A DNA stretch of 64,000 nucleotides, taken from NCBI GenBank assembly GCA_963772365.1, contig CAVYXA010000004.1, positions 37,761-101,760 of the forward strand. The letters are read 5' to 3'. This DNA is from an uncultured Verrucomicrobiae bacterium (GTDB lineage Bacteria; Verrucomicrobiota; Verrucomicrobiia; Chthoniobacterales; UBA10450). Position numbers and translations under genes: made by a program. The first letter of the stretch is position 1, and every line of letters begins with the position of its first letter. The notes beneath the pieces were generated by a model. That model did no database searches. It saw nothing but the letters and a program-made list of their open reading frames with translations, and had not been told where the DNA came from. Of the stretch, positions 13,690 to 52,412 are shown one piece after another.

Positions 13690-13782
13690 GTCATCCCGAG
13701 CGCAGCGAAGCGGAGTAGAGGGACCCCGGTGCGTTGGCTTTCCGGTTTTGCAACGGGATTCCTCGGCTCCGCTCGGAATGAC
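13690..13782. repeat. Family A hairpin element, copy 2
   Basis: GTCATCCCGAGCGCAGCGAAGCGGAGTAGAGGGACCCCGG...GGGATTCCTCGGCTCCGCTCGGAATGAC fills the scpB-glmM spacer. Confidence 0.8.
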
Positions 13783-25543: not shown

Positions 25544-27532
25544 ATGAAACACACGTTTTTTCTTCACGCGCTCGTTGTCCTGTTTGGGATCAATTCTTCG
25601 CTCCATGCAGCGGTTAACGTCACGCAGGAGCACAACAACCTCTCGCGCGACGGCGTTTACGTCGATGCGGCCTTTACTGCATCCGCGGCCGCCAATCTGA
25701 CCCGCGACCTCAACTTCAACGGGGCGATCTCGGGCAATATGCTTTCCCAACCGCTCTACATTGAAGGCGGCCCAAATGGACCGATGGTGATTGCCGCGAC
25801 GGAATCGAACAACGTCTACGCGCTGAATGCGATTACCGGCAGCATCATTTGGCAGCGTAACCTCGGTAACCCGGCGACGAGCGGTTTGCCGTGCGGCAAC
25901 ATCAATCCCCTCGGAATCAGCGATACGCCGGCTGTCGATCTTCCGTCCCGCGCGCTCTTTCTGGACGCCATGGTCGATACCGGAACTGCCAAGAAGCATC
26001 TTATTTTCTCACTGAATGTAGACACGGGCGCGACCAATCCCGGTTGGCCAGTGGATGTGAGTGCCGCGTTTCCATCATTTGATTCTCCCCATCACAACAA
26101 TCGCGGCGCGCTCGCTGTAGTGAACGGTATCATCTACGTGCCATACTCGGGGCACTTCGGAGATTGCACTCCATACCGGGGTTGGGTCGTTGGCGTGCAG
26201 ATCGACAATCCCTCGGCTGTCTTGGCTTGGTCCACGAGCGCAAACGGTGGCGGAATCTGGGGGCATTCCGGCGTAGCCAGCGACGGCACGAATATGTTCG
26301 TCATTACCGGCAACACGATCGGCACCGGCGGAACTTATAGCCAGGGCGAATCAATCATCCGGTTACAAGCCGGGCCGGTCTTCAACAACAACACCCAGAA
26401 TTATTGGGCCCCCACTAATTGGTTCTCTCTCGACAATTCCGACTCCGATCTCGGTGGTTGCAGCGCCATGCTCCTCGATGTCCCCGGTGCGACGCCTTCC
26501 CAACTCGTCCTGGCTTTGGGCAAAGATCGTAACGCGTATCTGGTGGATCGCAATAATCTTGGCGGAATCACTTCGGCCATCGCGTCGATGAACGTCTCCA
26601 GTTCCACACTCCGCGGACAGTCTTCCTGCACCTATCACACGAGCATGGGGACATATTTCACTTTCCGCGCCGGGACAAGCAACACCCTGGTCGCTTATCG
26701 GGTCAACCCCGGCAGCCCTCCCACCATGAGCAGCGCCTGGCTGGTGACACAATCCGGTGAAGGTTCGCCGTTCGTCACTTCCACTGACGGTACGAACAAT
26801 TTCATTGTCTGGGCATGTGGCGCCGGCGGTTCGCAGCGATTGAACGGTTACAACGCCGATACCGGCGCGCTGGTTTTTGCTGGCGGCGGATCGAACGAAT
26901 TGATGAGTGGCACCCGGAAATGGAACACCGGAATCGCCGCACGTGGCCGCATTTATTATCCCGCCGACAATCGCATCTACGCCTTCAAACTGCCGGTGCC
27001 CGAGCTTCAAGTTGCTTCTGCCGTTTCACGCAAAACGCACGGCGCCGCGGGCGATTTCGATATTGAGCTTCCGCTTTCCGGCCCTCCCGGCGTCGAATGT
27101 CGCATCGGCGGCGCGACTAACGATTACCAGTTTGTCTTCACGTTCAGCAACAATGTCGAAAGCGGGAATGCTACCGTGACCAGCGGAACCGGCACAGTGT
27201 CCGGCTCACCGACATTTTCCGGAAACACCATGACCGTGAATTTGACCGGCGTGACCGACATGCAAACGATTACAGTCACTCTGAGCGGCGTAACCGATCA
27301 GTTCCTCCAGGTCTTGCCCGACACACCCGTGAGCGCAAACATGTTGATCGCCGATACCAACGGCAATGGAACCGTAAACTCCTCAGATGTCGCCCAGACC
27401 AAGGGGCAGGTTGGCCAGACGGTGACCAGCGGCAATTTCCGCACCGACGTCAACGCCAACGGTAAAATCAACTCAACTGATGCAGCGATCGTAAAATCGC
27501 ACTCGGGCGGCGCGGTCCGGGCACGGATGTAA
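25544..27532 (+). CDS. Secreted PQQ-like/BamB-like beta-propeller protein with a C-terminal SRKxHG + dockerin-like module
   Basis: Signal peptide, then propeller-type repeats (ESNNVYALNAITGSIIWQRNLG, NGYNADTGALVF, RIYYPADNRIYAF). The last ~169 aa are shared with the gene at 36327..38345 and contain two DxNxNGxxNxxD loops. Confidence 0.65.
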   Translation: MKHTFFLHALVVLFGINSSLHAAVNVTQEHNNLSRDGVYVDAAFTASAAANLTRDLNFNGAISGNMLSQPLYIEGGPNGPMVIAATESNNVYALNAITGSIIWQRNLGNPATSGLPCGNINPLGISDTPAVDLPSRALFLDAMVDTGTAKKHLIFSLNVDTGATNPGWPVDVSAAFPSFDSPHHNNRGALAVVNGIIYVPYSGHFGDCTPYRGWVVGVQIDNPSAVLAWSTSANGGGIWGHSGVASDGTNMFVITGNTIGTGGTYSQGESIIRLQAGPVFNNNTQNYWAPTNWFSLDNSDSDLGGCSAMLLDVPGATPSQLVLALGKDRNAYLVDRNNLGGITSAIASMNVSSSTLRGQSSCTYHTSMGTYFTFRAGTSNTLVAYRVNPGSPPTMSSAWLVTQSGEGSPFVTSTDGTNNFIVWACGAGGSQRLNGYNADTGALVFAGGGSNELMSGTRKWNTGIAARGRIYYPADNRIYAFKLPVPELQVASAVSRKTHGAAGDFDIELPLSGPPGVECRIGGATNDYQFVFTFSNNVESGNATVTSGTGTVSGSPTFSGNTMTVNLTGVTDMQTITVTLSGVTDQFLQVLPDTPVSANMLIADTNGNGTVNSSDVAQTKGQVGQTVTSGNFRTDVNANGKINSTDAAIVKSHSGGAVRARM

Positions 27533-27604: not shown

Positions 27605-27790
27605 GTGGATGCAATCGCCGAAAAACTGAACACGAAGCTGAGTACATGGAAGCCAGAGGTTTCACGTGAAGTACGCGCTGTGGTCTCCGACGTGATCGAG
27701 GCCGCCGACAACGACACGCTCGACCTGCAACGCTCGCGGGCTGTCGAGCAGGAAGTGCTCGACCAATTGGATGAGTCCGCATCCAGGTGA
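27605..27790 (+). CDS. Putative antitoxin of the adjacent MazF/PemK-like toxin
   Basis: 61-aa acidic ORF with a GTG start that overlaps the toxin start by 20 nt. It is preceded by the direct repeat TTGACGTAAAATTGACG (27586..27602). Assignment is by position only. Confidence 0.45.
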   Translation: MDAIAEKLNTKLSTWKPEVSREVRAVVSDVIEAADNDTLDLQRSRAVEQEVLDQLDESASR

Positions 27791-28226
27791 GGTTTGGCTA
27801 GCCGACCTCGGGTTGGCTGCGAAGACCCGGGCAGTTGTGATTCTCTCGCGGCACGATCCAGAGGCGCCCCGCGCACTTGTCGAGTACGTGCCGCTGACGA
27901 TACAAAACCGCGGGAGTCGATACGAGGTCATCCTGCCACAACTGCGTTTTCTACGCGAGACGAGCATCGCGAATGTGCAAGGCATCGCCTCGATTCCGTT
28001 GGCTCGACTCGAGCGAAAGCTCGGCGAACTAGCTCCCGACACGCTCATAGCAATCCGCAAAGTGAGCAACGCGCAACGGACGTCACCCAAATCCAGTCTA
28101 CAAGCTGGTCAGCCCACGAGCGACACTAATGCTCCGCACGACGTAAGCGCCAACGGTACAATCAACTCGACTGATGCAACGATCGTGAAATCCCACTCGG
28201 GCGGCGCCGTTCGTCCGAATGAGTAA
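27771..28226 (+). CDS. PemK/MazF family toxin, fused at its 3' end to a remnant of a dockerin-like gene tail
   Basis: The N-terminal ~105 aa (PGEVWLADLG...KTRAVVILSRHD...ANVQGIASIPLARL) fit the PemK/MazF SH3-like fold signature. The last ~44 aa (DVSANGTINSTDATIVKSHSGGAV) are homologous to the C-terminus of 25544..27532. Confidence 0.65.
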   Translation: MSPHPGEVWLADLGLAAKTRAVVILSRHDPEAPRALVEYVPLTIQNRGSRYEVILPQLRFLRETSIANVQGIASIPLARLERKLGELAPDTLIAIRKVSNAQRTSPKSSLQAGQPTSDTNAPHDVSANGTINSTDATIVKSHSGGAVRPNE

Positions 28227-28231
28227 GTCGC

Positions 28232-29476
28232 CTAACGACAGACGTGCGTTTCCGGGTTCATTCGATATTTCCAGTCAGACCCGTTTGAGCCAGCTTCGCT
28301 CAAAGCGGAATCGACGAGCGAGCGATTCGCGGACAATGTGCAGACCGGATCCGTGTTGGCGGCGTTGCCGGTGAGCAACGCCGCTTGGCAACGGCAGCCA
28401 CCGAAATCGATTTCTTTTTTCGGACAACTCCGACACGGCTCCGGCATCCAATCGGTTCCGCGAAACCGGTTAAAGCTCTCCGATTCTCGCCAGATCCAAT
28501 CGAGCGACTGCTCCCGGACATTTTCGAATTGCATATCCGGAATCGCCGATGATGCCGTCGGACAGGGCGAGACGTCGCCGATCGGATTGACGGTGAGATA
28601 GCGCTGGCCCCAGCCGTTTAGGCACGGTTTCGGCCGCGTTTCGTAATAATCGGGCAGGACATAAAAGATGTCGATCTTACTGGCTAGCCGTTCTTTTGCC
28701 GCAGCCGCGATTTCACGGGCACGCTCGACTTGTTCGCGCGTCGGCAATAACGCGGCCCGATTCAAAAATGCCCAGCCGTAGAATTGCGTGTTGGCCAGCT
28801 CGACCCGATCGGCGCCGAGCTCTTCTGTCAGATCGATCATCTCTTCCAACTGATCGATGTTGTGCCGATGCAAAACGAAATTAAGGCTGAGAGAAATGCC
28901 GGCGCTGCGAATTAGCGCCGCGGCGTGGAGCTTTCGTTGATGTGCTCGCGCGCCTGCGATCTCATCGGCAAGATCGACATCGGCAGCTTGAAAACTGAGT
29001 TGCACAGAATCAAGGCCGGCGTCCCGCAATTCATTGACCCGCTTTTCATCGAGGATGATGCCGCTGGTGATCAGATTGGTGTAGAGATTGGATTCCCGAG
29101 CCGCGCGAATAATCGCGGCAAGATCGCGCCGAACCAGCGGTTCACCGCCGGAAAAGCCAACCTGCAATACGCCCAGCGCTGCCGCTTCACGAACAACGCG
29201 GAGCCATTCCTCGGTGGTCAATTCCGCATGAAGTGCTGTAGCGTGCGCTGTCCTCAGCGCATCTGTTGATGGCGCCGCTCGGCTTCCGCTGAGGAGAGCG
29301 GACGCTACACTGACCGGATTCGAGCAATACGGACAATGCAGCGGACAACGATGTGTCAGCTCCGCCAGCAATGCGTATGGACGCGGCGGCGCTGTAGGGG
29401 AAGCTGATAGCTTCCCGCGTGGCTGCGTTTTAGGGAAAGTGTCAGTTTCCCCTACAGTTTTCTTTGTCGTGCTCAT
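28232..29476 (-). CDS. pqqE: PQQ biosynthesis radical SAM/SPASM enzyme PqqE, with two repeat-derived in-frame insertions
   Basis: LLAELTHRCPLHCPYCSNP (CxxxCxxC radical SAM), GFSGGEPLVRRDL and C-terminal SPASM cysteines (CPTASS...CRSCPKKEIDFGGCRCQA). An ATGA overlap joins it to pqqD. Confidence 0.9.
   Translation of the reverse strand: MSTTKKTVGETDTFPKTQPRGKLSASPTAPPRPYALLAELTHRCPLHCPYCSNPVSVASALLSGSRAAPSTDALRTAHATALHAELTTEEWLRVVREAAALGVLQVGFSGGEPLVRRDLAAIIRAARESNLYTNLITSGIILDEKRVNELRDAGLDSVQLSFQAADVDLADEIAGARAHQRKLHAAALIRSAGISLSLNFVLHRHNIDQLEEMIDLTEELGADRVELANTQFYGWAFLNRAALLPTREQVERAREIAAAAKERLASKIDIFYVLPDYYETRPKPCLNGWGQRYLTVNPIGDVSPCPTASSAIPDMQFENVREQSLDWIWRESESFNRFRGTDWMPEPCRSCPKKEIDFGGCRCQAALLTGNAANTDPVCTLSANRSLVDSALSEAGSNGSDWKYRMNPETHVCR
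29236..29310. repeat. Family C GTAG-REP doublet (REPIN) inside pqqE
   Basis: CTGTAGCGTGCGCTGTCCTCAGCGCA...CCGCTGAGGAGAGCGGACGCTACAC spans 75 nt (25 codons). It encodes SVASALLSGSRAAPSTDALRTAHAT, directly after the radical SAM CxxxCxxC motif. Confidence 0.75.
29391..29456. repeat. Family C GTAG-REP doublet (REPIN) in the pqqE N-terminal region
   Basis: CTGTAGGGGAAGCTGATAGCTTCCC...GGGAAAGTGTCAGTTTCCCCTACAG spans 66 nt (22 codons) and encodes TVGETDTFPKTQPRGKLSASPT. Confidence 0.75.
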
Positions 29477-29757
29477 GCGAACTCGATCAATTTTCGGCGC
29501 TGAAAATCCGAGAGCGTCTCCTGAACATCTGCTGCAATTGTGGCAGGATCGACATCGTATTCTTTGGCGAGGTCGCTGATGATTTCCCCAAGTACCCGCC
29601 CATCACAACGCGCCATGATTTCGTGAGCGGTTTCGTTCAGTTCGACGATCCCCTCTGGATGAAGCAGGACAGATTTACCGCTGGCATTATCAATCTGGAA
29701 GCGAACGCCCGGCGCAAGACGTGGCCGCATGTCGTCACGAATTGTTTGCATAAGCAT
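29473..29757 (-). CDS. pqqD: PQQ biosynthesis peptide chaperone PqqD
   Basis: 94-aa version starting MLMQTIRDDMRPRLAPGVRFQ...LLHPEGIVELNETAHEIMARCDG, which is typical PqqD size and sequence. The 150-aa track ORF extends upstream into pqqC and I trimmed it. Confidence 0.8.
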   Translation of the reverse strand: MLMQTIRDDMRPRLAPGVRFQIDNASGKSVLLHPEGIVELNETAHEIMARCDGRVLGEIISDLAKEYDVDPATIAADVQETLSDFQRRKLIEFA

Positions 29758-30508
29758 GATGAATTGCGTCCAGAATCGCCCAGAGCAGATCGCATTTGAA
29801 CTGGAGCGCGCGAACGGCGGCTTCCTGTAGCTCGCGCGTGTTGCAATAACGCATGGTGATCTCGAGGGCTTCGGTCGAATCCCGCCGGGCTTGAGTAACC
29901 CGCCGCCGAAAATAATCGAGTCCACTTGTGTCGATCCACGTATAAAATTTTTCGAACGCGGCGAGACGCGTCGCCATCAAATCGGGCGCGAACAGTTCCG
30001 TGAGCGACGAGGCGATTGCGACCGGCCATGGCTCGCGTCGAGCGAAATTCACGTAGGCATCGACCGCGAACCGGACGCCGGGCAGAAGATGTCGATCCTG
30101 CAACAAATCTTCTCTCGATAATCCACACGCTTGGCCCAATCGCAGCCAGGCTTCGATCCCGCCTTCTCTGATCGGATTGTCGCCTCGGCTGTCCTGAACC
30201 GATTGCCCCTGTGATCCGCTGAGGACAGCGGACTCTACAGCGTCGATCAGCCCGTCATGATCGACAATCCGATGGACCCAGACCCGCCGCACGTCGCGCT
30301 CGGGACAATTGGAAAGAATGGCGGCGTCTTTGATCGGGATGTTGCGCTGGTAATAAAACCGGTTTGCCACCCAGCCGCGCAACGCTTCCTTCGAAAGCCG
30401 GCCCTCATTCATCGCAAGATGAAACGGATGTTTGTCGTGATAAGCGCGTCCGCCGGTCTCGCGCAGTTTCTCGATGAAAATCTCGCGATCCCAAACCGTG
30501 GCGGTCAT
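29735..30508 (-). CDS. pqqC: Pyrroloquinoline-quinone synthase PqqC, with a repeat-derived in-frame insertion
   Basis: YHDKHPFHLAMNEGRLSKEALRGWVANRFYYQ, RIVDHDG, GGIEAWLRLGQACGLSREDL and LPGVRFAVDAYVNFAR are PqqC blocks. An extra ~25 aa lie between DHDG and GGIEAWL. Confidence 0.9.
   Translation of the reverse strand: MTATVWDREIFIEKLRETGGRAYHDKHPFHLAMNEGRLSKEALRGWVANRFYYQRNIPIKDAAILSNCPERDVRRVWVHRIVDHDGLIDAVESAVLSGSQGQSVQDSRGDNPIREGGIEAWLRLGQACGLSREDLLQDRHLLPGVRFAVDAYVNFARREPWPVAIASSLTELFAPDLMATRLAAFEKFYTWIDTSGLDYFRRRVTQARRDSTEALEITMRYCNTRELQEAAVRALQFKCDLLWAILDAIHHAYANNS
30185..30240. repeat. Family C REP inside pqqC, with a degenerate inverted partner
   Basis: GATCCGCTGAGGACAGCGGACTCTACAG (30213..30240) is an intact GTAG-REP on the minus strand. 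TCGGCTGTCCTGAACCGA (30185..30202) keeps the hairpin but has lost the GTAG head. Confidence 0.65.
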
Positions 30509-31404
30509 AAAACGATTTCCATTCCATCGAATCCGATCTCAACTCCCGCCTTTTCGACTTGTTGTCGCTCCTCTGAGCCGGGCATCAGAATCGGATTGGT
30601 ATTGTTGATGTGAGTGTAAACCTTCCGGCTTGCCGACAAACTGCGCAACAAATCGAGAGACCCGTCGCGAATCGGCAAATGATGCATTTCCTGCGCGGTG
30701 CGCGCACCTGCCCGAACGGCAGATAACTCGTCGTTTGACCAAAAAGTTCCGTCGAACAGGATCACATCGGAGGCGTGGATTGCCTCGCGCAGATGATCTG
30801 TCAGTTCGCCAACCGCCGGCGCGATCACGGCACTCTTGCCGGAGTTTTCATCACGCAATTGAAAAGCAATGCTCTCGGGCAATGGAATCGCGGAAACGGA
30901 AATCTTCAGGCCGGGCAAGATTGAGCTTTGTAGGGCAACCGCTTCGGTTGCCGAGGCAGGCGGAGCGCCTGCCCTACAATTCGTGATGTCTGGGTTCAGG
31001 TCGCGCCATTCTATTCCGCAAAATTGTCTGAGCAGATTGTCGATCCAATTCAGCGCGATCCGCGTGGACCGATCGGCATAAACAAGCAACGGTTGCTCCC
31101 GTTGCCGCAGCAAAACCAGACCCAGCGCATGATCGATGTCCGCATTGGTGAGAAGAACGGCCGCGATGGGACTGTTCCGCAACGAATGGGGCCGCGGTTG
31201 CAGTTCTGGCGTGCTCTCGATTTGACGCGCCAGATCCGGTGAAGCGTTGATGAGAAACCAATGTCGATCATCGGCAGTGACGGCGACGCTCGACTGCGTC
31301 TGCGGTTGAATTTTTCCCGCGCGTGCGGCAAAGCAATTTGGACAAGCGCAATTCCATTGCGGCAGGCCGCCACCCGCCGCGCTCCCGAGAATTCGGATAC
31401 GAAT
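30505..31404 (-). CDS. pqqB: PQQ biosynthesis protein PqqB (MBL fold), probably starting at ATT, with a repeat-derived in-frame insertion
   Basis: The frame is open from the TAG at 31408..31410 and reads (V)IRIRILGSAAGGGLPQWNCACPNCFAAR...SSVAVTADDRHWFLINASPD, the canonical PqqB N-terminus. The first ATG/GTG/TTG is 74 codons later (the track ORF begins at 31182). The ATT at 31402..31404 lies 6 nt after GAGGGT. Confidence 0.8.
   Translation of the reverse strand: MRIRILGSAAGGGLPQWNCACPNCFAARAGKIQPQTQSSVAVTADDRHWFLINASPDLARQIESTPELQPRPHSLRNSPIAAVLLTNADIDHALGLVLLRQREQPLLVYADRSTRIALNWIDNLLRQFCGIEWRDLNPDITNCRAGAPPASATEAVALQSSILPGLKISVSAIPLPESIAFQLRDENSGKSAVIAPAVGELTDHLREAIHASDVILFDGTFWSNDELSAVRAGARTAQEMHHLPIRDGSLDLLRSLSASRKVYTHINNTNPILMPGSEERQQVEKAGVEIGFDGMEIVL
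30928..30979. repeat. Family C GTAG-REP doublet (REPIN) inside pqqB
   Basis: TTGTAGGGCAACCGCTTCGGTTGCC-GAG-GCAGGCGGAGCGCCTGCCCTACAA encodes NCRAGAPPASATEAVALQ. Confidence 0.75.
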
Positions 31405-31421
31405 GACCTACCCTCGCTCGA

Positions 31422-31511
31422 TCAGACAGCAGCCGCGTAGCAGGTGCACTCGAAAAAGATCGGCACGTAGCGCGCTGCGGGTTTGATCCACTTTTTCCTG
31501 TTCGATTTCAT
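31422..31511 (-). CDS. pqqA: PQQ precursor peptide PqqA (29 aa; absent from the ORF track)
   Basis: The minus-strand ATG at 31511 is preceded by AGGAG. The translation is MKSNRKKWIKPAARYVPIFFECTCYAAAV, with the W-x-KP motif and the E-x-x-x-Y pair (ECTCY) that is cross-linked into PQQ. It sits directly upstream of pqqB. Confidence 0.8.
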   Translation of the reverse strand: MKSNRKKWIKPAARYVPIFFECTCYAAAV

Positions 31512-38929: not shown

Positions 38930-38960
38930 CTACACAGGAAGCTGTCAGCTTCCCCTACAC
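38930..38960. repeat. Family C GTAG-REP overlapping the sixA 3' end
   Basis: The minus strand reads GTGTAGGGGAAGCTGACAGCTTCCTGTGTAG. The last codons of sixA (ACRGS) and its TGA are read from this unit. Confidence 0.65.
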
Positions 38961-39412
38961 GCGATCCGGGGCGGGAAAAGCCAGAGCAATCGCCCCGCGA
39001 GCGAGGAAAGATCGACATCGATCAGAGCGACACCGCCTTTCGAAAGTTTGAGCGACGCTCCGGTCAGTGCTGCGATCGCGCCTGTAAAATCCGGCTCGTG
39101 ACCAACGAGCATTGGGTCTTCGTCGGCATATTTTTCCAGCAGCTCTTCCAACTCTCGTTTCCCAAACCCCGGCGCGAGTAATTTTTCTTCCCGACACTTT
39201 GCCTTTAGACATTTTGCGGCAATCTCCGCAGTCTGCGCCGCTCTTGGCAGAGGGCTGGTCAGGATAATAGATGGCTTGGCTTTAACCCGGCGAAGGAACT
39301 TGCCAATTTCGCTCATTTCCTTTTTGCCGGCCTTCGTGAGGGGCCGCTCGTCGTCCGGTTTTTTCCAATTCGGCCAGTCGGCCTGACCATGTCTGAGAAA
39401 GTAAAGCCGCAT
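38945..39412 (-). CDS. sixA: Histidine phosphatase family protein, SixA-like
   Basis: MRLYFLRHGQA (the RHG catalytic motif), a size of 155 aa, and LVGHEPD. Confidence 0.7.
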   Translation of the reverse strand: MRLYFLRHGQADWPNWKKPDDERPLTKAGKKEMSEIGKFLRRVKAKPSIILTSPLPRAAQTAEIAAKCLKAKCREEKLLAPGFGKRELEELLEKYADEDPMLVGHEPDFTGAIAALTGASLKLSKGGVALIDVDLSSLAGRLLWLFPPRIACRGS

Positions 39413-39444: not shown

Positions 39445-39476
39445 CGGCTGCGGCGCGCCTGGCTGCCGCGCCCTAC
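39445..39476. repeat. Probable single Family C REP in the sixA / ROK-kinase spacer
   Basis: The minus strand reads GTAGGGCGCGGCAGCCAGGCGCGCC: a GTAG head followed by a GGCGCG/CGCGCC stem. Confidence 0.35.
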
Positions 39477-39480
39477 CAAA

Positions 39481-47054: not shown

Positions 47055-47158
47055 GCGCCGGCACCCGGAGCGGCTGCGCTACAAGAAGAAGATCCGCTGA
47101 GACAGACAGCGGACACTACAGCATCCTTACCGCTGTAGCGTGCGCTGTCCTCAGCGCA
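47055..47158. repeat. Cluster of three Family C GTAG-REP units upstream of pstS
   Basis: The cluster reads ...GCGCCGGCACCCGGAGCGGCTGCGCTACAA, then GATCCGCTGAGACAGACAGCGGACACTACAG, then CTGTAGCGTGCGCTGTCCTCAGCGCA. The last unit is identical over 26 nt to the unit at 29236..29261 in pqqE. Confidence 0.75.
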
Positions 47159-48484: not shown

Positions 48485-49192
48485 ATGAGCGAACCTGTTC
48501 GGCAACAAACTTGTGTTGTTTGCAAGAAATCATTCCCGTCCTCTCGCGGACAGCTGGCGGAGCTGATTCGGCCATCGCTGCACGAATTCGTTCGCAAACG
48601 TCTGCCGGGTTGGGATGGCAAGGGCTTCATCTGTCTCAATGATCTCGGCGAATTCAGAAAAGAATATGTAAAGGACGTCCTGGAGGACGAGATCGGCGAG
48701 CTGACCGCACTCGACCAGGAAGTCATCGAAAGTTTGCAAGAGCACGAAATCCTCTCGAGCAACATCAGCCAACAATTCGAGCGAAAGCTGACGTTTGGCG
48801 AGCGACTTTCCGATCACATTGCGACGTTTGGCGGCAGTTGGCGTTTCATCATCCTCTTCGGAACCGTCCTTCTCGGCTGGATAGCTCTCAACGTAATCGT
48901 GTTCCTTAACCGTGGATTCGATCCTTACCCATTCATCCTGCTTAATTTGATTCTATCCTGTCTGGCGGCGATTCAGGCGCCGATCATCATGATGAGCCAA
49001 AATCGGTCGGAAGCGCGGGATCGCTTGCGAGCCGAAAATGATTACAAGGTCAATCTGAAAGCCGAGCTGGAAATTCGACACCTGCACGAAAAAATCGATC
49101 ATCTTCTGCGCCGGCAATACAATCGGCTTTTCGAAATTCAGCAGATCCAGATCGAGCTGCTGGAAGAGCTGGGGCGAAAACGGCGCCCGTGA
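48485..49192 (+). CDS. DUF1003 family membrane protein
   Basis: N-terminal CVVCKK segment, RLSDHIATFGGSWRFIILF, two TM helices, then a QNRSEARDRLRAENDYKVNLKAELEI coiled region typical of DUF1003. Confidence 0.6.
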   Translation: MSEPVRQQTCVVCKKSFPSSRGQLAELIRPSLHEFVRKRLPGWDGKGFICLNDLGEFRKEYVKDVLEDEIGELTALDQEVIESLQEHEILSSNISQQFERKLTFGERLSDHIATFGGSWRFIILFGTVLLGWIALNVIVFLNRGFDPYPFILLNLILSCLAAIQAPIIMMSQNRSEARDRLRAENDYKVNLKAELEIRHLHEKIDHLLRRQYNRLFEIQQIQIELLEELGRKRRP

Positions 49193-49318
49193 TTGACCCT
49201 TCACGGAAATCAGCTCGCGCCTGCGGCGATTGGTTGCCATCGTCTTCGGGAGAAGCCGATCCACCTACATCGGGGTGGAACGCGTTGGCAAAAACAAATG
49301 CGGCTTTGGCCGCCATAC

Positions 49319-50560
49319 TTAGTCGCGACCCCAAATCATCGCCACAGATGTCGTGAGACTCCCGCCCATGTTGAAGGTGAGGAAACGTTTTGCGTTTGGA
49401 ATTTGTCGGGCACCGGCTTGCTCGCTCAGATGCTGATACGCTTCGTAAACCTGACGCACGCCGACTGGCCCCGACAGGATGCCCATCGCCAATCAAACCG
49501 CCGCCGGGGTTAACCGGAATCTCAAACGCAAACGGACCCCGCATTTTTTCATTGCGCACTTGCGGCAACGCGGTTGCGCCGCTCTTGGCCAGGTCTGCGC
49601 CTTTGCCTGGTTCGGCGAGACCCAGAATTTCGTAAACGACAATTTCGGTAACGGAAAAGCAATCGTGCACGTCCGCGCCATCGAGGTCGCGCGGCTTGAT
49701 GTTCGCCATTCCGAACGCTTTCTCCGCGGCTTTCCGTGCGATCGAAAATGTCGGCGCGTCCTTTTTGTTGAGCGGGAGGTAATCGGTCGTGTGACCGAAA
49801 CCGAGCAGGCGCGGCGTCTTCTTTTTAGCGCGCCCGGTCCTTTCCAAAAATTTTCCAGACACGAGCACGAGGCCAGCCGAGCCATCGGTGATCTGCGAGC
49901 AGTCGGAAACCTTCAATGGTGGGGCGACGCTCGGATTTTTGTCCGAGACCTGCGAGGCGCAGCTGAGAGTGAGATCGGCCTCGCGCATCTGGGCGAGGGG
50001 ATTCAATTTCGCGTGCGCGTAATTTTTCCAGGCAACAGTTGCCAGGTCGGCTTCGCTTCGCGCCGTAGTTGTCGATGTAAATTTGGGCGATCCGTCCAAA
50101 CAGTTTCGGGAACATATAATCGCCGTACTCGGGCTTTTCGTTGTGATAATCGGCCGCGGCTCCAAGCACATCCGCGCCATCGAGCGACGACATCGTTTTC
50201 TGTTGCTCCGCGCCTACCACGAGCACGACATCATAAAGTCCGCCCATGATCCATTCCGCGCCCAGCAAAACTGAGAGGGCGCCCGCTAGCGCAGGCCGCT
50301 TCGGTGTGCATCGTCGGGAATGCCGCGCAATTTCGGATCGATTTCAGGAATAAATGCGCCGAGCTGCAACTGCTTGGTGAACTGGCCGGAATTAAAATTT
50401 CCCACCGCGCCGGCCTGAATCTCTGACCGGGTCGATCTCGGCATCATCCATCGCTTTCTTGCCGGCTTCGATGATCAAATGCCGGATCGTCTTGCCTTCT
50501 TTTTCAGGTTGCGCTTAAAGTCCGTGCGCCCGCCGCCGAGATGTAAACTGGCTCGCTCAT
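49319..50560 (-). pseudogene. Thiolase (SCP-x type acetyl-CoA acyltransferase-like) pseudogene with at least 7 frameshifts
   Basis: Thiolase peptide blocks are spread over all three minus frames. They are MSEPVYISAAG / RTDFKRNLKK / EGKTIRHLIIEAGKKAMDDAEIDPV / EIQAGAVGNFNSGQFTKQLQLGAFIPEIDPKLRGIP / TMHTEAACASG / ALSVLLGAEWIMGGLYDVVLVVGAEQQ...IYIDNYG / SEADLATVAWKNY...NPGGGLIGDGHPVGA / GVRQVYEAYQHLSEQAGARQIPNAKRFLTFNMGGSLTTSVAMIWGRD, ending at the TAA at 49319. Confidence 0.75.
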
Positions 50561-50590: not shown

Positions 50591-51121
50591 TCACCACTGC
50601 GGCCGCTCATTAGCTTGATCCTCTTCCTCGGAAATTGGCCACCGTGCGTCGATCGGAAGGGAGTTCAAGCGAGTGAATAAATTCACGGAACCGCTCCGAG
50701 AAAATTCCTGTCGCAGTCTCCAATAATGCCCCATCCCGGGGGATGCGATATAATGGCGAAGAAGGCCGCACCATCCCTGCCAAATCTGTTCGTCCATGAC
50801 CCGATGAACATGATGAAAATGGATCGTTTCAAATGCCTTGAGAAATTGGTAGGCGGAATGAAAAAAGCGGGCCTGCTCTTCCGCCGATAGCGATTGGAGA
50901 TTTTCCAGACCTGCCCGCCAAATTCGGGCCAGCTCTGCGTTTTCGGCGAAAGGCCGCGTAACTTCACGAAGGGAAGTGGCTGCCGCATCCTGCGCCGCCA
51001 GTCTCGCCACACGCGTGCTTTGATGAACTTGAACCGCGAGATAAAGAACGGAAAGAACGACTGCAATCGAGCCGATGATTTGCGAGACCGCACTGATGGC
51101 GTCCCAGTTCGAATGACTCAT
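50591..51121 (-). CDS. Hypothetical membrane-anchored protein (intact, between the two pseudogenes)
   Basis: MSHSNWDAISAVSQIIGSIAVVLSVLYLAVQV (TM helix) is followed by a helical domain. Its ATG forms an ATGA overlap with the reconstructed stop of the upstream acyl-CoA dehydrogenase. I trimmed it from track ORF 50591..51202. Confidence 0.45.
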   Translation of the reverse strand: MSHSNWDAISAVSQIIGSIAVVLSVLYLAVQVHQSTRVARLAAQDAAATSLREVTRPFAENAELARIWRAGLENLQSLSAEEQARFFHSAYQFLKAFETIHFHHVHRVMDEQIWQGWCGLLRHYIASPGMGHYWRLRQEFSRSGSVNLFTRLNSLPIDARWPISEEEDQANERPQW

Positions 51122-52300
51122 GCGCAATCTGAAACTCCGAACGCGTCGATCCCGGTGACGTCCGACCGATGACCAGCATGTGGACATGTCGGGTTCCTTC
51201 ATAAGTGTAAACGCTTTCCAGATTCATCAGATGCCGGATCACTGAGTAGCGATCAGTGATGCCGGCAGCACCAAGGATGTCGCGCGCTTTGCGAGCGCAC
51301 TCGAGCGCCATGGCGACGTTGTTGCGTTTTGCCAACGAAATTTGCGCTGGTCGCGCCGTGCCGGCTTCCATAATTCGAGTCAATCGCAATGCCAAAAGTT
51401 GCGCCTTGGTAATTTCCTGCACCATCCAGGCCAGTTTTTCCTGCACGAGTTGAAAACCGGCAATCGGTCGCCCAAATTGTTCTCGAGATTTGGCGTAAAC
51501 GAGCGCCGTCTCATAGCAATCGATCGCTGCCCCAATCACCCCCCAGGCAATACCGATTCGCGCTTGTGAAAGACATGACAACGGCGCGCGCAATCCTTTC
51601 GCGTTCGGCAAACGGTTCGATTCCGGAATCCGGCAATTCGTCGAACCAACATTCCGACGTGCGCGACATGCGCAGACTGAATTTCCCTTCAATGTCGTTA
51701 GCGCGAAAACCGGGACGCGTCTTTCTCGACCACGAATCCCGCCACGCGTCCATCATCATCCTTCGCCCAGACAACTTTCACATCGGCAATGGAAGCGTTG
51801 CCGATCCAGCATTTGCTGCCGTTCAATATATAATTAGCGCCGTCGCGCTTCGCCCGGGTTTCCATCCCGCCAGGATCGGAGCCGTGCCCGTGTTCGGTCA
51901 GGGCAAAACAACCGACGCGCTCGCCCGACACCAATCCGGGCAACCAGCGCTTTTGTTGCTCAGGCGATCCGAACGAATGAATCGCATGAATGGCCAACGG
52001 GCCTTGTACCGACGCCAGCGAGCGTAATCCCGAATCCGCTCGTTCCAATTCCTGCATGATCAATCCGTAACCGGTATAACTCAGCCCGGCGCAGCCGGGC
52101 TCTTTCAGATACGGCGCATAAAACCCGAGCGAGCCCATTCGCGGGATGAGATGCTCCGGGAATTTCCCTGCGCGATGACACGGAACAACCTCCGGCATCG
52201 CTTCCTCCGCCACGAATTTTCGCGCCCGATCACGCGCGGCGCGCTCGTCATCAGTAAGCAATTCTTCAACCGCGTAGTAGTCGAGAGATCCCGGTGTCAT
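51118..52300 (-). pseudogene. Glutaryl-CoA dehydrogenase-like acyl-CoA dehydrogenase pseudogene (3 frameshifts)
   Basis: Frame A (52300..~51720) ends ...GFVVEKD. Frame B carries PGFRANDIEGKFSLRMSRTSECWFDE. Frame C carries RIPESNRLPNAKGLRAPLSCLSQARIGIAWGVIGAA...NLESVYTYEGT. A last shift near 51163 restores GRDVTGIDAFG...TGA at 51118. Length is 1183 nt, which is not a multiple of 3. Confidence 0.75.
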
Positions 52301-52331: not shown

Positions 52332-52412
52332 GTCATTCCGAGCGAAGTCGAGGAATCCATGGCGCAACTCACCGGTAGTTCCACGGGATGTCTCGACTTC
52401 GCTCGACATGAC
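52332..52412. repeat. Family A hairpin element, copy 4
   Basis: GTCATTCCGAGCGAAGTCGAGGAATCC...GGGATGTCTCGACTTCGCTCGACATGAC. Confidence 0.75.

Follow-up and report, generated by a model that had tools for sequence, protein, structure and literature searches.

We analysed a 64,000-nt stretch of DNA from an uncultured Verrucomicrobiae bacterium (GenBank assembly GCA_963772365.1, contig CAVYXA010000004.1, positions 37,761 to 101,760; hereafter the window), whose minus strand holds at 28232-31511 a full pyrroloquinoline quinone (PQQ) operon in the gene order pqqA-pqqB-pqqC-pqqD-pqqE. Three of the five genes contain short palindromic inserts. These are very probably doublets of repetitive extragenic palindromes (REPs), that is, REP doublets forming hairpins (REPINs), of the type that goes with REP-associated tyrosine transposases (RAYTs), which settled in frame in permissive places of pqqB, pqqC and pqqE and left the genes functional. 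The evidence lies in the anatomy of the elements, their copies elsewhere, the empty orthologous sites, the preservation of the reading frames, the conservation of the hairpin arms and the RAYTs and REPtrons of related genomes.

Anatomy and reading frames of the elements

The operon carries four inverted doublets of a unit with a (C/T/G)TGTAG head and a GC-rich hairpin, two in pqqE, one in pqqC and one in pqqB (Table 1), just where a first-pass annotation, made from the sequence alone, had located them. Family A (consensus GTAGCGTsCGCTGTCCTCAGCGsA) accounts for the pqqE loop and pqqC, family B (GTAGGGGAAGCTGAyAGCTTCCC) for the pqqE N-terminus and family C (GTAGGGCAnnCGCTyCGnnTGCC) for pqqB. Over the whole window, 12-13 units, which fall into three or four stem families and have (C/T/G)TGTAG or GGTAG heads, display the anatomy of REPs, and their spread over six separate places makes them a dispersed, multi-copy element. 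Each doublet joins two variants of the stem, distinguished by a compensatory change, with the GTAG heads pointing outward. Anatomy, paired variants and outward heads support the identification of the pqq inserts as GTAG-headed REPs and REPINs, which the first-pass annotation had proposed.

A strict search for GTAG followed by a perfect GC-rich hairpin found 11 matches in the window, whereas 30 second-order Markov simulations averaged 0.57. As single-stranded DNA, the four intragenic doublets fold much more stably than shuffled sequence (z-scores of -3.3 to -5.7). The 26-mer CTGTAGCGTGCGCTGTCCTCAGCGCA, reported earlier as shared by pqqE and an intergenic unit, is indeed identical at 29236 and 47133, with 0 matches in dinucleotide-preserving shuffles. 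Among the units that had been called intergenic, which belong to the families seen in the operon, the three-unit cluster upstream of the pstS-like gene and the unit (G)GTAGGGCGCGGCAGCCAGGCGCGCC hold up, but the single type-B unit provides the end of a histidine-phosphatase open reading frame (ORF) and is a REP overlapping a gene 3' end, not purely intergenic. No Rfam family matched anywhere in the window. A palindrome at 51603-51646 was considered as a further intragenic insert and rejected, as it is ordinary coding sequence of gcdH, a frameshifted gene.

Table 1. Coordinates of the REP elements and of the pqq genes in the window
Feature	Position (nt)	Units or strand	Remarks
Type-A REPIN, pqqE loop	29236-29310	29236-29261(+), 29285-29310(-), heads outward	directly after CxxxCxxC-SNP; encodes VSVASALLSGSRAAPSTDALRTAHATA
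Type-B REPIN, pqqE N-terminal extension	29392-29457	29392-29416(+), 29433-29457(-)	encodes TVGETDTFPKTQPRGKLSASPTA
Type-A REPIN, pqqC	30182-30250 (69 nt)	30215-30240(-) intact; partner ~30182-30210 decayed	between DHDG and DNPIRE-GGIEAW
Type-C REPIN, pqqB	30928-30979	30928-30952(+), 30955-30979(-)	encodes CRAGAPPASATEAVAL
Extragenic three-unit GTAG cluster	47055-47158	47055-47084(-), 47093-47121(-), 47133-47158(+)	between lipB and pstS-like gene
Single type-B unit	38935-38960	-	last five codons (ACRGS, frame TGT-AGG) and TGA stop of histidine-phosphatase ORF 38945-39412
Extragenic unit (G)GTAGGGCGCGGCAGCCAGGCGCGCC	39452-39477	-	GTAG unit
pqqA	31422-31511	-	29-aa precursor MKSNRKKWIKPAARYVPIFFECTCYAAAV, E-x3-Y motif
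pqqB	30505-31404	-	metallo-beta-lactamase fold; ATT start; stop overlaps pqqC ATG (ATGA)
pqqC	29735-30508	-	257 aa
pqqD	29473-29754	-	about 93 aa; homologous to relatives' PqqD; stop overlaps pqqE ATG (ATGA)
pqqE	28232-29476	-	radical-SAM/SPASM enzyme, 414 aa

At the protein level, alignments with PDB structures and relatives bear out the claim of extra codons: each insert adds 21-27 that are absent from reference and close orthologues. PqqC is 24 residues longer than 1otv/3hml, with 28 residues between DHDG and GGIEAW versus 4 in Klebsiella, and PqqE gains 22 residues over 6c8v directly after CxxxCxxC-SNP. The 27 additional residues at the PqqE N-terminus are found in the window only, the relatives starting with MTA-PRPYALL, and no alternative start codon was found downstream of this doublet. 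PqqB has about 21 residues more than its homologues in four relatives (L004-L007), an insert that the PDB alignment by itself does not reveal. The frames in use are GTA-GCG, GTA-GGG, GTA-GAG and TGT-AGG, all of which avoid the TAG within GTAG, as had been noted before; each doublet leaves only one or two of the three frames of the coding strand free of stops, and the frame used is always among these. The AlphaFold model of PqqC (predicted local distance difference test score, pLDDT, of 78.6) places the insert in the stretch that joins helices 71-85 and 117-127 and scores residues 98-113 below 50, which fits a flexible surface loop.

The hairpin arms themselves are conserved. In five pqqE genes, synonymous-codon identity was 87% within the REPIN versus 61% in the flanks. 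The arms are thus held at the nucleotide level, whether through recent transposition, recognition by the RAYT or a structural role.

Copies elsewhere, empty sites and the link to RAYTs

A scan of soil metagenomes with the family-A DNA pattern returned at least 120 contigs. Among the matches listed, the compensated stem pair was present in 146 of 152 exact units (80 G..C and 66 C..G), and all 26 doublets join a G..C unit to a C..G unit, 25 of them with heads outward. Most copies lie outside long frames, with 78 of 103 listed units lacking a spanning frame of at least 40 codons on both sides, and the pqq copies of the window belong to the intragenic minority. Doublet length was a multiple of three in 10 of the 26 listed cases; as lengths in the metagenomes are not constrained to threes, the intragenic copies form a filtered subset. 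In-frame hosts of family A elsewhere are PrmA, the PqqE of further contigs and Tgt, where a single Pfam stretch spans the insert. A protein search with a tandem 53-aa query of the REPIN-encoded peptide gave no hits among 19 candidates.

The closest loci come from Verrucomicrobia metagenome-assembled genomes (MAGs), including Candidatus Udaeobacter, and several of them lack the inserts. No insert occupies the PqqC site in L002, L006, L007 or any more distant locus, nor the PqqE site behind CxxxCxxC in L003, L006 or L007, and the PqqB site is empty of a REPIN in L004-L007, the reference set of the PqqB alignment; at this last site L002, the nearest relative, carries a hairpin of another kind, without a GTAG head and with a 9-bp stem. 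In a set of 77 diverse PqqC loci, 60 had 5 residues at the site, and the maximum outside the Udaeobacter-like lineage was 14.

Within the lineage, the same sites are filled again and again. For PqqC, the best 120 homologues were evaluated and both flanking motifs were located in 107, of which 104 had 22-40 residues between them and 3 had 5; the PqqE site after CxxxCxxC was occupied in 119 of the 119 best homologues, although both fractions overstate prevalence, as the ranking favours insert-sharing sequences. With these counts and with published in-frame GTAG REPs (PMC3733652), the earlier description of such insertions as highly unusual has to be withdrawn.

The occupants differ. At the PqqC site, type A (AVESAVLSG...ALRTAHATA) is found besides a GGAG-headed palindrome that is read in two frames (LEGGAPATPG...LAGARPS and GGRSSCDAG...), and the PqqE site holds FPVAASLREAPRRPQGGGYS (DNA GTAGCCGCTTCGC) and HYCRATASVADPE (DNA GTAGGGCGAC); a further site occupant reads GGLQSAQP...AAGKPPL. 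For every occupying family examined, the DNA of representatives was palindromic. A neighbour-joining tree of the PqqC core, built with the inserts masked, showed the insert families intermixed, and the nearest relatives of the window (82-85% identity) are empty at the PqqC site, for which reasons the pqqC insertion of the window looks independent of those in the large clade. A comparison of filled with empty sites gave no convincing common target sequence or target-site duplication. A variant of type A carries the additional segment ESD(S/A)SAGALAK(E/A)D inside the hairpin (PqqC of L004; PqqC proteins P0072 and P0107; PqqE protein P0223) and, being present at both sites in different genomes, is a sub-family and not a one-off nesting.

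That the segments are ordinary lineage-specific loops, selected as protein, with incidental palindromy and no mobility, is extremely improbable. The PqqC loop does vary between 5 and 14 residues in other phyla. However, the identical 26-mer lies in intergenic DNA, family A occurs in at least 120 unrelated contigs and there mostly outside long ORFs, one DNA family is used in two frames at the PqqC site (LEGGAPATPG, GGRSSCDAG), and the nearest relatives have empty sites.

Two further observations concern the surroundings of these loci. The independently assembled Logan short-read contig L001 (1-1590) is the same as window 30979-29392 except at 2 mismatched positions and for a 1-nt indel near 29592 in pqqD, and its ends fall exactly on the outer borders of the pqqB and the pqqE N-terminal REPINs, which suggests that the assembly broke at repeated sequence. 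In relatives, three 20-kb loci around pqq (L203, L204, L205) contain, per 16-21 kb, between 8 and 14 strict matches to G[TG]AG+hairpin, most of which have a GTAG head and which represent at least six stem families. Several of these stand at annotated gene N-termini, where start codons may be mis-called.

Transposase genes were found in related genomes. On L203, a contig of a related MAG, a RAYT gene stands 10 kb away from the contig's pqq operon. Its product shows the HUH motif (DHVHLF) and the tyrosine motif (KWNYVRENP), and with REPINs of family GTAGCCACCGGCC on either side the gene forms a REPtron. In L097/L180, a C-terminal RAYT remnant between two type-A REPINs represents a decayed REPtron, and an ORF of L117 matches Pfam Y1_Tnp with 24.7 bits (cut-off 23) and, as its best PDB match, 4er8, the E. 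coli TnpA-REP (E = 1.2e-8). The E. coli RAYT query used is valid, since its hits match Pfam Y1_Tnp and PDB 4er8. Judged from these sequences, a link to RAYTs is supported at the level of the lineage, and in the source genome the elements would presumably have been mobilised by such an enzyme as well.

Functional state of the operon and competing readings

From these data, the following course of events is very probable. Short non-autonomous GTAG-headed hairpin doublets would be mobilised by RAYT (TnpA-REP, HUH/Y1) transposases, and copies of families A, B and C would have landed in permissive places, namely in surface loops of all three insert-bearing proteins and, in PqqE, also in the N-terminal tail. 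A copy would survive only if its length is a multiple of three and its frame is free of stops. Survivors would be transcribed and presumably translated as 21-27-residue linkers rich in Ala, Ser, Gly, Thr and Pro, and PqqB, PqqC and PqqE would remain functional with them.

Several points weigh against this account. The operon, with 5% of the window, contains 7 of about 13 units, corresponding to 4 of about 8 insertion events, and a purely neutral filter for permissive loops does not obviously produce such a concentration. No RAYT was detected in the 64-kb window with either the E. coli RAYT or the lineage's own RAYT as query, so that the RAYT association of the first-pass annotation stands for the lineage (L203, L097/L180, L117) and not for the window. 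The AlphaFold model of PqqE (pLDDT 56.8) is too poor for placing the inserts, and the proposed check for surface loops consequently succeeded for the interhelix loop of PqqC but not for PqqE. Finally, pqqE of L203 (11150-11290) changes frame inside a GTAG-REP insert and pqqD is uncalled there, which is either a real disruption or a long-read assembly error; unless it is the latter, REP inserts can accompany gene damage.

Recurrent occupancy and concentration in the operon may stem from filtering by selection, from a choice of target or from an advantage that the hairpins confer. A stronger version holds that, across the globally abundant Udaeobacter-like soil lineage, the same codon-level positions of PqqC, PqqE and PqqB were colonised independently by at least four or five unrelated families (type A; the GGAG-headed palindrome in its two frames; GTAGCCGCTTCGC; GTAGGGCGAC; the non-GTAG hairpin in L002), which would imply that the RAYT machinery picks the target, for instance by reusing a resident GTAG head for the next integration, or that hairpins in the pqq message are under positive selection. 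We regard this version as rather doubtful.

It is unlikely that the hairpins were exapted as RNA or DNA structures that tune the pqq operon and are kept by selection, with the coding insert as the cost; in such a role they would, for instance, protect the upstream transcript with pqqA from 3' exonucleases or pace translation. The lineage-wide filling of three sites by differing families would agree with exaptation, as would the higher conservation of synonymous sites in the arms than in the flanks, the compensatory changes that maintain individual hairpins and the concentration of units in the operon. Moreover, the spacing between pqqA and pqqB of only ~17 nt leaves no room for a terminator, and REPs are known stabilisers of mRNA (PMC3733652). 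However, arm conservation and hairpin upkeep are equally expected from recent transposition or RAYT recognition, the empty-site relatives L002, L006 and L007 keep an otherwise similar operon, and family A also sits within the unrelated genes for Tgt and PrmA.

The REPIN reading with functional host genes agrees with the state of the operon. PqqB, PqqC and PqqE match PDB 4z7r, 3hml/1otv and 6c8v, respectively, with E-values of 1e-52 to 1e-103. All five pqq ORFs are open and without internal lesion, and every clade-invariant residue is present in the Pqq proteins, including the CxxxCxxC and SPASM cysteines. The ATGA overlaps of pqqB/C (30505-30508) and pqqD/E (29473-29476) are kept, as already seen in the first-pass annotation. 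By sequence, the genes appear functional and the enzymes would retain their activity.

The 5' end of pqqB deserves a separate remark, as no ATG, GTG or TTG start exists there in the window (31402-31410) or in L002, L007, L008 and L010. No more than two codons after an in-frame stop comes a conserved ATT (ATC in L010), which in the window stands directly 3' of an in-frame TAG-GTC, and a GAGG-like Shine-Dalgarno sequence precedes the ATT/ATC; other relatives have TTG-ATT. ATT looks like a conserved initiation codon of pqqB, and because ATT or ATC is conserved at this position in five lineages, the noncanonical start is no lesion.

The first-pass annotation had also raised the possibility of an operon on its way to decay, with the inserts as early lesions under relaxed selection and the proteins impaired or inactive. 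Such a course might be read from four insertions in 3.2 kb, one of which adjoins the radical-SAM (S-adenosylmethionine) cluster motif, from the frameshifts in the neighbouring gcdH and thiolase-like genes and from the frameshifted pqqE of L203. However, it is at odds with the five open ORFs with their coupling overlaps, with the full set of clade-invariant residues, and with insert sites common to hundreds of well-conserved homologues (72-78% identity). The conserved ATT/ATC start of pqqB in five lineages and a PQQ-type beta-propeller gene 0.7 kb from the operon (weak PQQ_2 match) also speak against it, and we consider decay very unlikely.

As to the neighbouring genes, the glutaryl-CoA dehydrogenase gene gcdH (50964-52300, minus strand) is split over three frames within ~200 nt, with PDB 2eba covering both halves, and a thiolase-like gene (49050-50268, minus strand) looks frameshifted, whereas the nearby pqq genes are intact. 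Both are either pseudogenes or carry assembly indels. Directly after a 662-aa dockerin-bearing beta-propeller gene follow a small ORF (27605-27790) and a MazF/PemK toxin ORF (27771-28226; Pfam PemK_toxin), the latter ending in a dockerin fragment. A stretch of 82 nt from the 3' end of the beta-propeller gene is repeated at ~87% identity (27438-27519 and 28133-28213), as if a toxin-antitoxin cassette had been inserted with target duplication. A second, non-GTAG interspersed repeat, CATTCCGAGCGAAGTCGAGGAATC, occurs at three intergenic places with no more than 2 mismatches (1773-1796, 13757-13780 and 52334-52357) and 0 times in shuffles; the last copy forms an 81-nt inverted repeat with a partner arm at 52386-52412.

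Comparison with known systems

REPINs and bacterial interspersed mosaic elements (BIMEs) were reportedly described together with RAYTs in Pseudomonas and E. coli by Bertels and Rainey in 2011 and Ton-Hoang in 2012. Inverted GTAG REP doublets with RAYTs are documented for these hosts (Nunvar 2010, PMC2817692; Corneloup 2021, PMC8266576). The elements of the window resemble them in the inverted GTAG doublets and the alternating stem variants (the Y and Z REPs of BIMEs), and the single-copy RAYT flanked by its own REPs is seen here in related genomes. In contrast, the Pseudomonas and E. coli elements are almost wholly extragenic, whereas over half of the window's units lie within coding sequence.

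Rickettsia palindromic elements (RPEs), reportedly described by Ogata et al. in 2000 and 2002, lie in frame in functional genes. They share with the pqq inserts that they are palindromic, in frame and thought to form surface-exposed segments. Unlike the pqq inserts, RPEs are longer, their short forms RPE-4 and RPE-6 are CGTC-tagged, and their host is an obligate intracellular alphaproteobacterium. Di Nocera, De Gregorio and Rocco (2013, BMC Genomics 14:522, PMC3733652) mention the in-frame RPEs and give their size as about 100-150 bp, or CGTC short forms, to which the pqq inserts with 52-75 nt and GTAG heads do not correspond.

The closest parallel is found in the same work, which reported GTAG and CGTC REPs inside genes of several species, the intragenic GTAG cases being most numerous in the verrucomicrobium Opitutus terrae, in which several GTAG families abound. 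REP dimers there code for 20-30 aa, some genes are hit twice, and the inserts were argued to occupy loops or linkers (PMC3733652). The window agrees with O. terrae in GTAG hairpins within ORFs of known proteins, kept frames and dimer size, and likewise in double-hit genes, N- or C-terminal units and a verrucomicrobial host with many GTAG repeats of several families; an association with RAYTs and REPtrons is shared at the level of the lineage. As in the cases of Di Nocera and colleagues, homologues without the segment exist, the frame is kept and each insert measures 21-27 aa. The sequence families differ, peptides of O. terrae such as VGPALAAG matching none of A, B and C, and the published table lists no pqq gene (PMC3733652). 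Among the papers searched, none links Udaeobacter with palindromic repeats.

For annotation, REP-coded linkers should be seen as routine length variation in conserved enzymes of REP-rich soil Verrucomicrobia, as such linkers interrupt short-read contigs and may be taken in error for novel domains or pseudogenes. Recurrent loop occupancy in PqqC and PqqE, with hundreds of metagenomic homologues, offers a natural experiment on site choice and survival of REPINs, and on the tolerance of a radical-SAM enzyme for 20-50 extra residues beside its cluster-binding motif. What is known of the nature of REPs is unchanged by our findings, and in-frame REP insertion itself has been known since 2013. New is that, throughout a lineage, several families have repeatedly occupied three codon-level sites of a single operon, and that 4 of about 8 events fall in 5% of the window; the 2013 work (PMC3733652) reports neither the filling of identical codon-level sites by more than one family within a lineage nor four events per operon.

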